From positions 208,754,001 to 208,818,000 of the forward strand of contig OZ024742.1 of assembly GCA_964016885.1 (NCBI GenBank): 64,000 nt of DNA, written 5' to 3'. The notes under the pieces are model-generated. The model was given only the letters and a program-made list of their open reading frames with translations. It was not told the DNA's origin and ran no database searches. Every line of letters begins with the position of its first letter. Position 1 is the stretch's first letter. Source of the DNA: Eledone cirrhosa. Lineage: Eukaryota. Positions 5,876 to 58,152 of the stretch are shown piece after piece. The position numbers and the translations under genes were made by a program.

Positions 5876-5924
5876 TTTTATTTTATATATATATATATCC
5901 AGTTTGACATATATATATATATCC

Positions 5925-8557
5925 AGTTTGACACAGAGAGCTACTATGCTGCAATCACCTTACCGCTACTTACGGCTGCCTTGGACTTCGCCGAAGCACT
6001 TGTGCCCATCACCAACCAGGAAAGAAACATCATCCTCCATGCCAGGAAGACAGTCTTACTCTTTGACAACTCCAAATGGATAAAAAGAGCTCCCGACTCA
6101 CCCTTCGACGTCAGCATGGGCGCGACGGATTCGGCGGAGGTCACAGATCTTATAGGATTATTCCGAATAGCCAAACTCACCGATATGTTTCCTGCATTCG
6201 GTGGTGGATTGTACCGTGGTGATGGGCTCCTTACCCTTAAAGGGTCCGTAAACGATTAATCAGCTTCTTCCGCGACTGGGGATTTTAAATAACCCTACAA
6301 ACGTCCCTGACCCGAGTAAACTTCCTGGACGTTACCGTCGACCTCGATAATGACCTGTACTACCCATACAGGAAACCTAATGACAACCTGCACTACATCC
6401 ACCGCCGATCAAACCATCCTAGGAACATCACCAACAACCTGGTCAAAAACATCTCTTTCTGCATATCCCGTCTGTCAGCTAATGAGCAGATATGCGATGA
6501 ACATGCGCCTTATTACAACCAGGCCCTCAAGCTGAGTGGTTTCCGGGAGGAAATATCCTACTGTCCAGCTCCCATTAGCGGACCCAGCAGGCGACACCGC
6601 CGCTCACGCAATGTAACATGGTTCAATCCTCCCCACAACGCCGAGGTGACAACTCCCATCGGGAAAATATTCTTTAGGCTCATTGAAAAACACTTCCCAC
6701 TACAACACCGCTACCACAACATAATTAACAAAAATACCATCAAACTCTCTTACAGCACTACACCTAACTTCGCACAAAACATCGTCTCCTCCAAGAACAA
6801 AAAACTCAACCCCGATAAAAGAAATAACCTAAATTGCAGTGGACAGCCAACCAGGGGGTGCAACTGTCCTGATGGATCGATTTCCCCCCTCGACAACAGA
6901 TGCAGAGATCGTAATGTGATCTACCAGTGCAACGTGAGGACGGACACCTCCAACAAAGCTTATATAGGATTAACCGCATGTGACTTCAAGACCCGGCTAT
7001 ACCAACACAGACATACCTTCCGAAACCCGGCCCGGCGTCACGCCACTACACTTTCGGGCCACATATGGGACCTCAAGGATAACAACATTACCTATGTCTC
7101 ACTTGGTGATTACTGTCCAGAGCCAACTCTTACACGGGAGGACGCCGTCCGTGCAATTTATGCTCGGAGGAAACTTTACAAATGCTGTTTTCGACGGACC
7201 AACTCCTAAACAAGAAAGATGAACTGGTTCCTGCATGTAAACACAGATTGCGTAGGACTTACCTCGCCCTCAAACCCCATAATGACCCGGGGGGGGGGGG
7301 AAGACTAGGGCTATAACACCCCACTTGCCGATTTTGTATCGGGTAACCCTTGCTTGCTAAGGGAGCCGTAAGATCTTCTTTTATATTCTTTTATCGCTTC
7401 CTCTATATTTCCTTCTTCCCCCCATCCCTCCCTAGTCCTTCCACCCCAGTTCTTTTCCTTTGTCGTCGTCTTTTTCTCGCCCACCCGAGGCAGCCCCTCG
7501 GTCCTTTTTAGCCTCAATAACCCCACCCCTTCCCCTATTCTATGATAGATTTCGCCGACTCCGCTTTTTATAGCAGATGCGTTAGACCCCGGATACTTGC
7601 CCCCCCCCTATCCGACCGCTACACCTTTTTTCCGTACCTTCTATATTTCTCAGTGGCATCTTTGCTTTATTTTCTCGTTTATCAGTATTTATTCATTTTT
7701 TTTTTGGGGGGGGGGATTCTGAATTAATTTTCCGTATTTTACTTTTACTTTGTACGAACTTTCATGTAGCTTGTATAAGAACTTTTGTATCTTGGCGGTA
7801 CCCTTAGAGTTAGTAATAGTATTTTTTTTCGGGACTCTGAATTATTTTTTCGTACTAGTTTACTTTTTTGCACTGGGTAGTTGCTGGCCTTGTGCCTGGG
7901 GTAGAAACTTTTTTAATTATTTCGTGGTAGTTTCTTTAGTATTTTGGCCCCTCCTTTGTTGACCCGTCACCGTATGATATACGTACTTATACCTCTTAAA
8001 AGGGTCTCTTTTTTATTCCGTCCCACCTAGTTTATATTTATTTATTTATTTATTTACTTATTTATTTATTTATTTATTTATTTAATTACTTATTTAGCCT
8101 AGCAATAGCGATAGACTTAGGTCGTTGTCACCAGTAATTGTTTATTTTTTTTTTTACATTTATTCGCTTTTTAACACTCTCAGTATTTTCTTTATATTTT
8201 TACCCTACATTGTTCTACCCACCATTTCGACTTCCTCCCCCTCCCCCTCCCTAGTATCTTCTCTAACCTCACACCCAGCTGTAGCCGGCACTACCAACGC
8301 ATGAATGGCTCTACTCCACCCCCTCTCCCCCTTTCTCCTACTGGCAGGTTTAGTACCCCTTCCCCCCACTAATTTGCCATCATAAAATTATTATGTCTCA
8401 ACTACTAACTATGACCAATCCCTGTGACAAACACTTTGACCATATATGGAATTACCCCTTGAGAAGCTCGGCTATTCAAATACCAGGATAAATTTTCATT
8501 TAGTCCAGAATTAGGCGTCGAAACGGCTTGAGCTCAGCCGTCGGGGTCTTACTCGTT

Positions 8558-17600: not shown

Positions 17601-18046
17601 ATTTAAATTGTTTAGTCTGATGATCGAAATTATGATAACAATTTTCACGAAAAGCGCTCTACAAACTCGGTGGCTAATCTAATACAAAAATTCTATTGTG
17701 AGCATTAATTTTTAACTCATAAATCCTGCATTAAGAATCGATCTAATCGATGATTTTCAATACAGTTTCTGTTTCCTAAAATCTACTCATAAGACATTCG
17801 TTGACCAGAGGCAATGATACTAGTCCCCAGACGTACGCTTGAATAGAAATCGCTTCGGAAGAACAAATACCAATAATTGAAAAATGCAGAGAAGTTTAGC
17901 GTGGCTTCTCTGGAAGGATGACTTTAAAATTCGCGAAATGTCTCGTAATTTCCCAAGAGGGCAGTCCCATTGCATAGCCACAGCTCACTAGCTCGAACCA
18001 GGAAAAGTGGACGGAGAGAACATAAACATTTCAAATTTAAATAAGG

Positions 18047-24841: not shown

Positions 24842-25110
<269 letters not shown>

Positions 25111-25177
25111 CTACCTAACTCGTCCCATGGACTGAGTGCTCTACCACTACGGATATTACCTTCCAGTGTTCCACCAC

Positions 25178-25208
<31 letters not shown>

Positions 25209-25274
25209 GAAGAGAGAAGAAACATTTAGATATAATTAGTAATAAAATGTATCATACCTAAACTGCTCCTAAAT

Positions 25275-25364
25275 TCCTCGACTACGTAGTTTCGTGGCAT
25301 AAACAAAAACAATATATCATAAAGATATAGAGTCCCTGCGAGGTCTGCCGACTTATCAAGAGGA
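25275..25364 (-). ncRNA. Type I HHR, U3-A8 core (copy 1)
   Basis: Reverse complement: tcctc-TTGATAA-gtcggca...tgccac-GAAAC-tacgta-GTC-gagga. Confidence 0.85.
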
Positions 25365-25869
25365 TACCTCATTTTACTAGTCTCAAGAACGCGTCTACAC
25401 GACGTGAGAAAGAATCCCAAAAGGCGGAGGGGGAGATAGTCACGCGATATAACGGTTGAGAAACAGAGCTAAGCCTCTTATAACCACGAAGAAAATACCA
25501 CGGAGGCGGAGGGGGTATTCATATCGAGGCCGCAGAAGAGGTGGTGAAGAAGGCTAGAAGTATGAGTAATGGAAGCTTTCCAGTTGTCCCCACACCTCAA
25601 AGATTGCTCGACCAGAGGGAGTTATTAACAATATATTTAGAAACACACAGATACATGCGGACACACACATATATACATGAATGCATCCGCACCCAACTGT
25701 GAGTTGAGGGTGCCAACTTCACCGATGTTGCTCAATGAATGACCGGGACAGACCAATTCAGTTGAACCAGACTGAACCAGTATCAGAGTTAAAAATACAT
25801 TATGAAGAGAGAAGAAACATTTAGATATAATTAGTAATAAAATGTATCATACCTAAACTGCTCCTAAAT

Positions 25870-25959
25870 TCCTCGACTACGTAGTTTCGTGGCATAAACA
25901 AAAACAATATATCATAAAGATATAGAGTCCCTGCGAGGTCTGCCGACTTATCAAGAGGA
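25870..25959 (-). ncRNA. Type I HHR, U3-A8 core (copy 2)
   Basis: Same sequence as copy 1, offset by 595 nt. Confidence 0.85.
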
Positions 25960-26027
25960 TACCTCATTTTACTAGTCTCAAGAACGCGTCTACACGACGT
26001 GTGTGTCCGCATGTATCTGTGTGTTTC

Positions 26028-26091
<64 letters not shown>

Positions 26092-26096
<5 letters not shown>

Positions 26097-27245
26097 GAGG
26101 GTCATATTGTTGTAATAATATTGCCAGAAATAATAACAGAACACACTCACTGTTTGGTTGGTTTTCGCTTCTGTATCTTTTATATCTACACAGTTAATTC
26201 ATATGATCCTCAATGTTTATCATTGACTGACCAACGGTCAAAAATACAGATATAATATAGATATAAACACATATATAAACACACATATATATAGTCTAAC
26301 AAAGGTTCTTTCGTTGCAAATCTGCAACATCATCAGTGGTACTATTATGTTCCTCCTGTTGTATTGTATGTCTACGCCATTTTTATTTTATTTGTTTATT
26401 TATTTTTGTCTTCTTCTCTGCGCATGCGTTTGCGTGTGTGTATAGTGTTTGGTGTGTGTTCGCGTTTGGGTGACTGTGTTTTGCTTATTGTATTCTATCT
26501 TAGTTTATTAGTGTGTGTTTATATGTGTTTGTTGTTATTGTGTATATATTTATTTATTTATATTTATTTTAAGTCAGTATTGTTTGGGTGTTGTTGTTAT
26601 TCCATTCAATTTTTCTGTTTAGCTTTGGCCTTCTAAGCTCTATTTCGCTTACCACTCTGGTTCGCTTATCTGCTGGGTAATTTCTATGTTTAGATATCAT
26701 TTTAATTTCTATGTTGTCTATGTTGCCGTCATGTTGTTGTCTGGCGTGTTTGTATAGTACTGAAACGATTTTTCTTCCTTTTAATTCCCCCCAGTGTTGA
26801 TCTACACTGTCCCTTATGCTTCGGGCTGTCTGGCCTATGTATGTTATTGTCATGTTTCTGCAAGTACCCTGTGTACAGCTTATGCTATAGACAGTACGTT
26901 GCTACAGTTTATCTGGGGATTTACTTTACAGTTTATCTGGGGGTTTACTTTACATATAACACATTTCCTATTAGTACAGTGGGTTTTCTTAAAAGGTTAT
27001 GTTTTGCTGATCAGGGATTTTATGGTAGTACCTGGCTTTTCTACCACTTTAATATTTAAGTGGGTCTTTCTCAGGGACTTTCTACACTGGTTAGCTAATT
27101 TCCCTCCAGGGGTAACGTCCATGACACTCTACCATCTTTGGTTGTCGTACCATGAGGTGACTTTCCCTATCTTATTATCTTATGTTTAGTCCTATCTAAG
27201 CTATTCCATGATTTTCTCCTGTATAATGGACAAATTGCTATCATG
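26092..27245 (-). mobile_element. Decayed PLE 3' part (GIY-YIG plus terminal repeat)
   Basis: TYIGQTARSIRDSVDQHW...SVLYKHARQQH...KLNRKIEW. HHR-like CTGATGA-tgttgca(gatt)tgcaac-GAAA at 26298-26340; (TA)n flanks. Confidence 0.75.
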
Positions 27246-32946: not shown

Positions 32947-33025
32947 ATATATATATATTAGAATTGATGCTCTGAAATAGTGATATTGTTTTAAAGTAGC
33001 GACATTCAATAAAAATCCAACACAT

Positions 33026-33120
33026 AATTTTCGGCAGACAGGGAGAGTGGTGAGTTTTGATAAGTACCAACAAGTACGAAACAGAGCTGTCAAATTATCT
33101 CCCTCTGTCTGCCGAAAATT
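33026..33120 (+). ncRNA. Type I HHR with extended stem I, U3-A8 core (copy 1)
   Basis: ttttcggcagacagggagagtggtgagtt-TTGATAA-gtac(caacaa)gtac-GAAAC-agagct-GTC-aaattatctccctctgtctgccgaaaa. Confidence 0.85.
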
Positions 33121-33344
33121 TAAGTAAGCGACAATGTCGTTACTTTAAAACAATAGCGTGTGGTCTTCAAAATGCTTTTAATTAAGCATACAGTGTATTG
33201 CAAAATACACTATATATACATTCATATATATATCGCTATTTCAGAGCCCCAATTCTAATTTTCAATTCCTGGTGGGCCGGCGACCGCTCTGTAAAATCGG
33301 TTCCTGATTGTTACTGGTATTCTATAAGAATCCAACACACATCA

Positions 33345-33435
33345 TTTTCGGCAGACAGGGAGATAGTGAGTTTTGATAAGTACGAAAAAGTACGAAACAG
33401 AGCTGTCAACTTATCTTCCCCTGTCTGCCGAAAAT
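33345..33435 (+). ncRNA. Type I HHR with extended stem I, U3-A8 core (copy 2)
   Basis: ttttcggcagacagggagatagtgagtt-TTGATAA-gtac(gaaaaa)gtac-GAAAC-agagct-GTC-aacttatcttcccctgtctgccgaaaa. Confidence 0.9.
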
Positions 33436-33568
33436 TTAAGTAAGCAACAATGTCGCTACTCTAAAACAATAGCGTATGGTCTTCAAAATGCTTTTAATTA
33501 AGCATACAGTGTATTGCAGAATACACAATATATACATTCATATATATATATATATATATGTATATAAA

Positions 33569-33646
<78 letters not shown>

Positions 33647-34252
33647 AATATATTACACAAATAGAAGTGTGTTACACAGTGAAATGTGTGTAAAGGATTA
33701 TTATAAGTGATTTTTACCGTTACTGTATAGAAAACAAGCAATTAAATAGAAAGAAAACCTAAGTCAGAATAAAATTACTGAAGTAGAGTTTTAAATTACT
33801 AACCTAATAACTATAAGTTTGTTGATACGAATTAAGTTCGTTTCGCCACAGAAATGTGCAGTTTAACAGACACAGGTTCATCAGTCAGTAAATGTGGATT
33901 CTGTTTACTACACATCTAGCCTCATGGATAGAGAGAAAGCTAATATACACGCTGCCCAGTGTAGGGCAAAATAACGTGTTATTTGCATCAAATAATGGTT
34001 CTCATGGATTGAGAAAATGCTAGAGAGAACAGCCCAACCATTCGAATTTATTTTCACTATGTAACACATTTCTATTTGTGTAATATATTTGTATTCGAGC
34101 TCAGAAGAAAATTCTCTATTCTTTTTTGAGCTAATATTATTATTATTACTGTGAACTGTGGAATACTCTTAATTCCGATCCTTATATATATATTAGGAAG
34201 TGAGTTTTCTTTACAAAATGAACAAAAACGAGGTGTCCTACACGAGTAAAAG

Positions 34253-35886
34253 TATAAGGAAAAAATATGAAATCGAAAATGCAACTGGAGACTTTTTTAT
34301 TTAAAATATATTTATTTGGTTCCTTTACCGGATTCGCAGTTCTTGTGCTTTTCAAAAGTAGAATTGAGATGGATGGTTTGTGGTTTTTGTCGCATCTTGC
34401 TGGTGTTCGAATGTTACTTCTGTTTTATATGGAAAAAAGTGGCTCGAAATGCTAGGTTTTTAGAAAAGTAATTTTTGTTGGTTGATGACTGTCATGTGTA
34501 TATGTATAATAAACTTCGCGCCAGTTCGCGTTACAAGTACTTATTATATTTTAAAAAAGTGTGTGTTCAGATTGTTTTTTCATATATGAGAGAAATTTAG
34601 TTGGTTGATGCAGTCACGTGAATAAGCACATCAGCTTTCACGCCAGTTTGTTTTGGAATTTCTTTTTACTTAAAAAAAGTGACTCACGAAGGCTTTTTTT
34701 ATAAATGTAATTTGATTGGTTATAAATGAAATCATGACTGTCACGTCAACAAGTACATTGAATATCGTGCCCGTATTTTGGTATTTTTGTGTAGCCATTT
34801 AGAGAATTTTGTGCCAAACAAAAGATAATGGTCAAGAAAAAAGGGATGGAGAGAATTGTTCTGTTTCAGTGAGCATGGCTGACGTGCTGAAATGTAATTT
34901 GATTGGTCATAAATGAAATTATGACTGTCACGTCAACAAGTACATTAAAATTCGCTCCCGTATTTGGGAATTTCTTTTGTAGTCATTTTGAGAATTGTAT
35001 GCCAAACAAAAGACAATGGTCAAGAAAAACGGTTCAGTGAGTATGGCTGATGTGCTGGAGTGTCAAAATTCAGACTTTCTATTGAAATAAAGAAAGTAGA
35101 AATATGTATGTTTATTTGTGTGCTGGTGTGTGTGTGTGCCTGAGTGTGTAGGAAGATGATTCTATTTGTAGAAATAGGGGAGGGAGTTGTGTGTGTGTGT
35201 GTATGGGTGTTACATCTGTGTGTGTGTGTATGTGTGTGTGGGAGTATGGTTAGCATGTTAAGACGGAGAGAATATATATTTGTGTGTGTGTAGGAAAATG
35301 ATTCCGTTAGTAGAAATGGGGGAGGAAGTTATGTGTGTGTGTGAAGGGGTGTATGTTTAGCATGTTAAGGTGTTAGAGTATTAACGTATGTTAAGGTTTA
35401 TTTAGCTCTGTTTTTTATTTTATAATATAGAAGGTTTTATGTGTGTGTGTATGTGTCTGTTTGGATGGTGAGTATGTTATGGTGTTGATATAATGTATAT
35501 TAAACTATATTTAGTGCTGGTCAATATTTTTGAATAAACATATTTTCCTTATTTATTCGTATTTGTTCTGTTCTATTGTCAGCGCAAAGATAAAATGGGA
35601 AGACTTGGAATTTGGGTGTCTTGCGCATATGTCTAGATACCACTCAGTGCACATCTAGACATATGGCAGATACCACTCAGTGCACATCTAGACATATGGC
35701 AGGTACCACTCAGTGCACATCTAGACACCAACCAGATGCGAGAACCAACCAGATGCGAGTAAAACCACAAATCCTCCATCTCAACTCTACTTTTGAAAAG
35801 CACAAGAACTGCGAAACCGGTAAAGGACCCAAATAAATATATATAAAAAAAAAGACTCCAGTTTCATATTCGATTTCATCTTTTTT

Positions 35887-38696: not shown

Positions 38697-38860
38697 TCCT
38701 TTGTCAGTGTTGAACAAAAGAGCAACGATGGTTGCTAAACACTGTACGGCTTAATTCGGGATGTTTGTTTACAAACACACCGAGAAATATAAATGTTCGG
38801 TAAATCCATACGTACATATATATATGTGTGCCTGTATCTGTATATATATATATATATATA

Positions 38861-39465
38861 TAGGAACCAGTAAGACCCCGACAGCTGAGCTCAAGCCGTT
38901 TCGACGGCTAATTCTGGACTAAATGAAAATTTATCCTGGTATTTAAATAGCCGATCTTCTCAAGGGGTAATTCCATATATGGTCAAAGTGATTGTCAAAA
39001 ATCAGTAGTAATTCTGTGGTTGCAAATTAGTAGGGGAGATGGTGGCTAAACCTGCCAGTAGGAGAAAGAGGGGAGGGGGTGGAGTAGACCCAATCAAGCG
39101 TTGGTAGTGCCAGCTACAGCTGGGCATGAGGTCAAAGAAGATACAGGGGAGGGGGAGGAAGTCGGAACGGTAGGTAGAACAATGGGGGGGTAGAAATAGG
39201 AAAGAAAAAATACTGAGAGTGAAGAAAAGCAAATAAGTGTAAAGAAAAAAGTAAAGTAAATTAAATTCTACGACCTAGGTGTCAGGCTATTGTTAGGCGA
39301 GAATAAAATAAAGAAAGAAAGAAAGAAGTAAATAAATAAATAAATAAATAAATAAAGAAATAAGTAAGAGAACTAGGTGGGACGGATAAGGCAAGGACCC
39401 TTTTAAGAGGTATAAGTACGTAAATGATACGGTGACGGGTCAACAAAAGGGGCCAAAATACTAAT
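38861..39465 (-). mobile_element. Solo 3' UTR/pLTR of the Naiad family at 5925-8560
   Basis: Reverse complement matches ~7935-8560. Confidence 0.85.
38875..38968 (-). ncRNA. Type I HHR, U3-A8 core
   Basis: Reverse complement: acccc-TTGAGAA-gatcggcta...tagccgtc-GAAAC-ggct..agct-GTC-ggggt. Confidence 0.82.
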
Positions 39466-57595: not shown

Positions 57596-57634
<39 letters not shown>

Positions 57635-57637
<3 letters not shown>

Positions 57638-57696
57638 GTACAGAATTAGCCGTCGAAACGGCTTGAGCTCAGCCATCGGGGTCTTACTTGTTCCTA
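57635..57696 (+). repeat. 3'-terminal fragment of the Naiad pLTR (HHR 3' half)
   Basis: Matches 8500-8560. Confidence 0.8.
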
Positions 57697-58152
57697 TATA
57701 TATATATCCATGAGGGTGTGTCTGTGTATCTATACATATATAACTTATAAACATCTAAATATTTAACTTTACATTTTTTTTTTCTGAATCCTTTTTTCTT
57801 TTCCCTGAATCTCTAACTTTCCTCCTCACTAATACGTTATTTCACATTTTCTTTTACTCTATATGTATGTCTATAATTGTGCTTATTTGTTTGTCTGTGT
57901 GAAATTTGTCTATGTTATCGCGTGATTCATCTGTCTGACTATTAATTTGTGTACATTGTTATGGTATCTTATATATTTTGAATGTTATGTATGGTATGGT
58001 TATCACAATGCATCAATGTTATTTCAATTATGGAAAGTTGTCTATCATTTCAACCTACCAGCAAGCCAGCACGTACGCGCAAGCACGCACAGTTCACACA
58101 CATGAATACTATCTTTCTTACATTTCTCGTTAATCTCTTTCTGTAGTTAAAT

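Follow-up and report, generated by a model that had tools for sequence, protein, structure and literature searches.

Two groups of mobile elements, Penelope-like elements (PLEs, a kind of retrotransposon) and retrozymes, provide the closest described systems, and retrozymes have been reported to derive from PLEs (10.64898/2026.07.22.740005, in the part compared). The passages of PMC11167929 that bear on the subject define the PLE tail by two RT start sites, describe how both target strands are cut and extended, and predict that the protein acts as a dimer. In the portions compared of eight papers (10.64898/2026.07.22.740005, PMC11167929, PMC4209133, PMC8557442, PMC3846280, PMC7229834, PMC3088659 and PMC6765202), a hammerhead core with U3:A8, cleavage in a dimeric form, an inverted copy, a tail at one end only, two RT starts and the circle hypothesis have all been described already. 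PLE tails, inversions and tandems, as well as circles as the template of retrozyme transposition, are open questions in the papers compared. The short, young and abundant family described here makes both testable, since it offers a large set of natural insertion products along with a compact RNA on which two start sites have been mapped.

The element considered here lies in the window, that is, the whole 64,000-nucleotide stretch of Eledone cirrhosa DNA that was analysed. A preliminary description had presented it as an element made of two apparently identical repeats of about 200 bp, each with a minus-strand hammerhead, separated by a non-coding spacer and preceded by a short inverted copy of internal sequence. 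The repeats indeed exist as a pair of 203 nt (25204-25406 and 25799-26001) with 100% identity and a period of 595 nt, and the inverted copy is a 38-nt stretch (25999-26036) matching 25631-25668 in reverse complement; read along the element it is 5'-terminal, and at 25999-26001 it has 3 nt of microhomology to the direct arm. The spacer is non-coding as proposed, but it is not a separate part, being the remainder of a 595-nt monomer. The window copy is a 1.34-unit piece of a 595-nt tandem family and not a two-repeat element. Its features are as follows:

25204 to 26036, minus strand: whole insertion (inverted arm, 5'-truncated unit and one full 595-nt unit)
25999 to 26036, plus strand: inverted arm, monomer positions 131-168, with its outer end at site B
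25799 to 26001, minus strand: 5'-truncated upstream unit, or pseudo-LTR, monomer positions 393-595
25204 to 25798, minus strand: full 595-nt non-coding monomer
25870 to 25959, minus strand: hammerhead 1, type I; core 25954-25948, stem III palindrome 25885-25876, predicted cut 25875/25874
25275 to 25364, minus strand: hammerhead 2, type I; core 25359-25353, palindrome 25290-25281, predicted cut 25280/25279
25200 to 25240, minus strand: site A, fixed 3' end, 76-80 nt past the cut; 3' end of the window copy
25623 to 25660, minus strand: site B, second fixed end, monomer positions 168-175, about 244 nt past the cut
25935 to 25965, minus strand: possible pseudoknot between GAGGU (5' of stem I) and ACCUC (stem II loop)
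25180 to 25201, no strand: (TA)n target, left flank
26031 to 26093, no strand: (TA)n target, right flank

The longest ATG frames of the 595-nt unit span 48 and 46 aa, the former running across the hammerhead and being disrupted in a sister family by a 2-nt insertion, and a tblastn comparison with six PLE proteins revealed no PLE protein remnant in the unit (best E 0.084). Folded as a circle, the monomer gave a z of -5.8 against 25 shuffles. Among 39 loci, none carried the private variants of the window copy as a daughter copy would. The possibility that the duplication is an assembly artefact of this single locus was discarded, as the unit and its ends recur at 58 insertions and contigs from public runs have loose (TA)n ends at or adjoining both end positions (25628-25631 and 25795). 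No RNA run was listed among the sequencing runs that contain the unit, and a single cyclic contig of it, found in one sequencing run, was not retained as evidence of circles, since tandem DNA gives the same result. Directly beside the window copy, positions 24981-25179 form a near-perfect palindrome, made of the head-to-head ends of another hammerhead-bearing PLE-type family with a CUGAAGA core (in the L036 copy) and stem III ACAAUUGU; its right arm is about 62 nt longer, following the same two-end rule, and the sub-threshold Rfam miRNA matches obtained there reflect the hairpin alone. Elsewhere in the window, 17846-17952 (plus strand) is a diverged U6 snRNA-like sequence (46.9 bits), probably a pseudogene.

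The preliminary description had also compared the element with a similarly organised one at 32955 and had seen no sequence similarity between them, a view that was borne out by alignment: the best local score was 26 versus 19.5 +/- 2.0 for shuffled sequences, with 1 of 200 shuffles scoring as high (a 19-nt AT-rich stretch), and that on the other strand was 25 (15 of 200 shuffles). The two elements do have the U3:A8 core in common. The second one (32955-33530, plus strand) shows a period of about 316 nt and has relatives of 72-90% identity at five other loci (L071, L114, L137, L154 and L168).

In the 3.0-Gb genome, at least 214 family matches came from 40 of 1667 candidates scored, all the long ones but one being 98-100% identical. 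Copies of at least 95% identity were also present in 5 of 190 loci (1.13 Mb) that had been taken for other reasons, after one locus overlapping the query was dropped, which suggests that family insertions number in the thousands, an approximate estimate from a sample that favours (TA)n-rich regions. The 58 insertions examined (39 + 19, with two stretches merged and three local copies counted once) are dispersed over many contigs, and the (TA)n-like character of the 3' flank is found at 38 of 39 loci; loci were picked for length and similarity, so that long young copies are over-represented in all samples. Units are arranged in head-to-tail arrays, the largest containing 6.7 + 7.5 units in one inverted insertion of 8.5 kb. 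At one locus (L211, G000:C1:338973500-338983400), a single insertion has been triplicated together with its flank, with a period of 2908 nt. The recent insertion proposed earlier is sustained by the 98-100% identity within the family; the identity of the two repeats, on which it had been based, reflects the copying of one unit in one event and does not date the insertion as that of LTRs would. Relatives of greater age exist at 87% and 73% identity and likewise consist of non-coding tandem units, which indicates that the lineage is long-lived.

The minus-strand motif noted in each repeat was recovered in full. It comprises a stem I (UCCUC/GAGGA), the core UUGAUAA, a 59-nt stem II region, GAA, a stem III made of the palindrome ACUACGUAGU, and C17, with U3:A8 replacing C3:G8 in the core; the stem II region consists of a base helix and a 46-nt loop, which is itself a 13-bp hairpin. 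Rfam detected no hammerhead at the gathering threshold or at E<=10. When conservation of the fold was scored on 23 distinct sequences (of 43 found), 98.5% of the cells were paired and in two pairs both partners had changed: one pair belongs to the loop II helix, the other is formed by palindrome positions 4/7 (A-U in 10 sequences, G-C in 10, G-U in 1 and unpaired in 2). Conservation of the 4/7 pair favours a dimer, because in a monomer it would close a 2-nt loop, and the both-sided change at this pair, by which the palindrome of the 73%-identical sister family differs, amounts essentially to one evolutionary event between subfamilies. In the calculations, the palindrome is far more stable as a duplex (-12.9 kcal/mol) than as a hairpin (+1.5 kcal/mol), and when the folds were forced, the double hammerhead came out 10.3 kcal/mol lower than two monomers. 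It exceeds the free MFE by 8.5 kcal/mol, and the dimer pairs had a probability of about zero in the predicted ensemble. The earlier idea that two palindromic stems III pair with each other as a double hammerhead is supported by the 4/7 change and by the advantage of the modelled dimer, and slow cleavage would be expected from an active fold that is not the predicted ground state. The GAGGU and ACCUC segments, paired in 99% of the cells and nearly invariant, might form a pseudoknot, possible but unproven, and GAGGU could alternatively sequester stem I.

The ends of the family follow a regular pattern. Throughout the 58 insertions the 5' end is variable and the 3' end falls at site A or site B. 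Copies without inversion (n=22) end at A in 16 cases and at B in 6, while the 36 inverted insertions combine both sites in 32 cases, with one A+A, no B+B and three having another end. The sister family of 73% identity retains both end sites and, as judged by eye, shows 17 A+B, 2 B+B and 3 other combinations among 22 inverted insertions. An equivalent rule is obeyed by inverted pairs of autonomous PLE families (11/11, 5/5 and 6/7). Sites A and B are alike in sequence and each lies directly 3' of a conserved hairpin; the tail between them measures 168 nt, in comparison with 55-100 nt in the autonomous families of the same genome, and both element ends show a similarity of 3-5 nt to (TA)n.

A second set of observations indicates how the two arms are related. 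The arms of inverted insertions agree at 192 of 199 informative sites, compared with 63% when matched to other loci, and six of the seven disagreements sit in a single chimeric insertion (L034). Of the 36 inversion junctions, 27 are ungapped and 9 contain 1-9 inserted bases; the ungapped ones display microhomology of at least 1 nt in 24 of 27 cases (43% expected) and of at least 2 nt in 15 of 27 (15.5% expected at random). Both arms can span several units, and the starts of the direct arm are spread over positions 49 to 562, unrelated to the priming site of the other arm. Insertion by a dimeric RT that primes twice on one multimeric or circular RNA is the likely explanation. A PLE protein dimer would bind one RNA at the two similar hairpin-flanked modules, nick both strands of (TA)n and start a cDNA at each of the sites A and B; the two cDNAs would extend 5'-ward through the hammerhead sites, and their 3' ends could then anneal via microhomology of 1-8 nt. 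Each cDNA would thereby serve as the template for second-strand synthesis on the other, and the arms would come to lie head to head in the inversion. Retention of only one cDNA would produce a plain 5'-truncated array. The template is likely a ligated circle or an uncut multimer, and the hammerhead is presumed to cut slowly, as a dimer, releasing units.

The link to PLEs suspected at the outset is strengthened by the fact that target, ends and inversion rule are the same as those of autonomous PLEs, but the proposed search for an autonomous PLE sharing the repeat gave none among the seven families compared. These families (ORFs of about 784, 894, 715, 1167 and 775 aa, plus two older, degraded ones) have no sequence in common with the unit except in AT-rich stretches. 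Several of them are young and keep their ORFs intact, and the U3:A8 core is shared by the 784-aa family and an older one with ends loosely resembling A and B. A 23-nt match of 87% between site A of the sister family and the 775-aa family was rejected because it lies away from that family's real ends, and a 20-nt pattern from a run contig diverging from the unit gave no matches. Pfam yielded no match on seven PLE fragments of the window and RVT_1 on one locus ORF. Judged by motifs, clade names such as Neptune or Hydra might apply to these families. Several PLE pieces lie in the window itself. Positions 26094-26901 (minus strand) contain the 3' end and a GIY-YIG fragment of a family with young copies and ORFs of up to 1167 aa, in which a scan found no canonical hammerhead. 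The stretch 34186-35200 (minus strand) represents the 3' portion of an autonomous PLE of greater age, which has a hammerhead of the U3:A8 type and two ends separated by about 65 nt. A very abundant young PLE (3542-nt unit, 784-aa open frame, loci L101-L120) has left pieces at 5921-7598 (plus), 38860-39464 (minus) and 57633-57697 (plus); in its hammerhead the core is U3:A8 and stem II is bulged in a similar way. Another young PLE (loci L273-L292) has a 4202-nt unit with an intact 775-aa RT-EN frame and apparently a second frame upstream; one of its arms starts exactly at the predicted hammerhead cut.

Taken as a whole, the family is best read, with a probability of about 0.8, as a non-autonomous PLE of the non-LTR retrozyme type, that is, a young, multi-copy 595-nt family with a predicted type I hammerhead, mobilised in trans by the RT/endonuclease of a PLE. 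On the retrozyme side, there are non-coding tandem units with one type I hammerhead motif each and dispersed copies; on the PLE side, a pseudo-LTR with an inverted 5' copy, two RT start sites and a (TA)n target. The family is young and abundant, and its mobility via a PLE enzyme is likely; the element class itself is known and ordinary, the copies present here being an unusually clear record of how insertion proceeds. A plant LTR retrozyme does not fit, since it needs a type III hammerhead in true LTRs and the family has type I motifs, tandem arrays and variable 5' ends. Amplification as a satellite at the DNA level, by unequal exchange or a Helitron-like rolling circle with no RNA step, would agree with local multi-unit duplications such as the triplicated L211 insertion and the period-2 and period-4 variants of L031, but the fixed 3' ends, the variable 5' truncation, the microhomology at inversions, the (TA)n target and the match of the A/B rule with autonomous PLEs make it a very remote prospect, and as to dispersal it is largely refuted. 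Twin priming of the classical L1 type, in which a single linear RNA is used and the second primer marks the stop of the first cDNA, would give the head-to-head geometry and the same-template haplotypes. In L1 twin priming, however, the start of the direct arm is tied to the second priming site; here the 5' end of that arm is untied from the priming site of the inverted arm, and arms can span several units, so that this explanation is improbable.

The nature of the multimeric template is a finer matter, since DNA data by themselves do not tell a circle apart from uncut multimers combined with template switching. Private variants number 13 fixed in all units of an array, 6 of these across both arms, besides 132 found singly and 17 partly shared, and their array-wide fixation implies repeated copying of one unit. 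Junctions between 5' ends and (TA)n near the cut were collected by pattern search (at least 100 rows, corresponding to some 50 loci by hand count): among the approximately 50 loci listed, the start coincides with the cut in 2, lies no more than 2 nt from it in 11, and in about 15 falls at a TA microhomology located 8-10 nt beyond. With so few starts at the predicted cut, linear RNA left by cleavage can hardly be the main template. Speaking against a pure monomer circle, the cut site bears no ligation scar (5 variant sites versus 5.0 expected). On balance, we lean slightly towards a circular template. The competing view holds that the templates are long uncut read-through transcripts, arrays being built by RT template switching between homologous units and by local duplication, and the hammerhead being a slow passenger. 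In its favour, distinct units occur in a defined order in L033, L205 and L215, as well as in L031 with its period-2 and period-4 variants, an arrangement that speaks against a monomer circle because such a circle cannot give it, and in L033 and L205 the ordered heteromers are read by both arms. Chimeric L034, with old and young units mixed and a subfamily switch away from the cut site, and the duplicated unit of L205, out of phase with the cut, point in the same direction, as do published observations, in the parts compared, that PLE insertion in vitro is unaffected by hammerhead mutants (PMC11167929) and that cleavage was absent from 8 of 9 dimers tested from Xenopus (10.64898/2026.07.22.740005). 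Nevertheless, the core and stems are conserved with compensatory changes at 73% identity, and 13 near-identical units over both arms of one insertion, together with variants fixed across arms, need repeated copying of one unit; we find the account by uncut transcripts less likely than not. Returning to circles, a fuller model, in which a PLE RT dimer primes twice on circular RNA at two dedicated hairpin-flanked modules and each subunit rolls for several turns, is put forward tentatively. If true, double priming on a circle would explain the PLE tail, the head-to-head inversion and the tandem arrays together, and the family would fill a gap by providing evidence from in vivo insertions that circRNA can template retrotransposition.

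The literature compared contains no description of the 595-nt family and no paired-end count, although the supplements of PMC11167929 and of the bioRxiv paper may bear on this; what the family adds is the count behind the pairing rule, the evidence for a common template, the 168-nt tail and the read-through of cut sites. With metazoan non-LTR retrozymes, as described in the relevant parts of PMC7229834 and 10.64898/2026.07.22.740005, it shares non-coding tandem units with one type I hammerhead each, arranged from dimers to multimers, and 595 nt falls inside the 51-972 bp reported for such retrozymes, above the examples of about 300 bp in PMC7229834. It differs in its U3:A8 core and its long structured loop II, and in that its circles are hypothetical; the retrozyme passages of both sources are without the fixed paired ends or inversions seen here. 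The partial tandem, the inverted 5'-truncated copy, the tail at one end, the (TA)n target and a hammerhead with a palindromic stem III are features of EN+ PLEs in the passages compared (PMC8557442, PMC3846280 and PMC11167929), from which the family departs by having no ORF and a tail of 168 nt instead of the 30-40 nt in print. The U3:A8 core has been reported for Schistosoma PLEs too (PMC4209133, in part), and the Anolis element primed without homology, in contrast to the 3-5 nt of similarity to (TA)n at both ends here. Finally, according to the sections of PMC8557442 on Chlamys, non-autonomous PLEs such as MRC1 are alike in being non-autonomous, pLTR-forming and multicopy in head-to-tail order, but these generally have their 3' sequence in common with an autonomous family and most are without a canonical hammerhead, whereas the 595-nt family has no such partner among the seven families compared and carries a predicted hammerhead.
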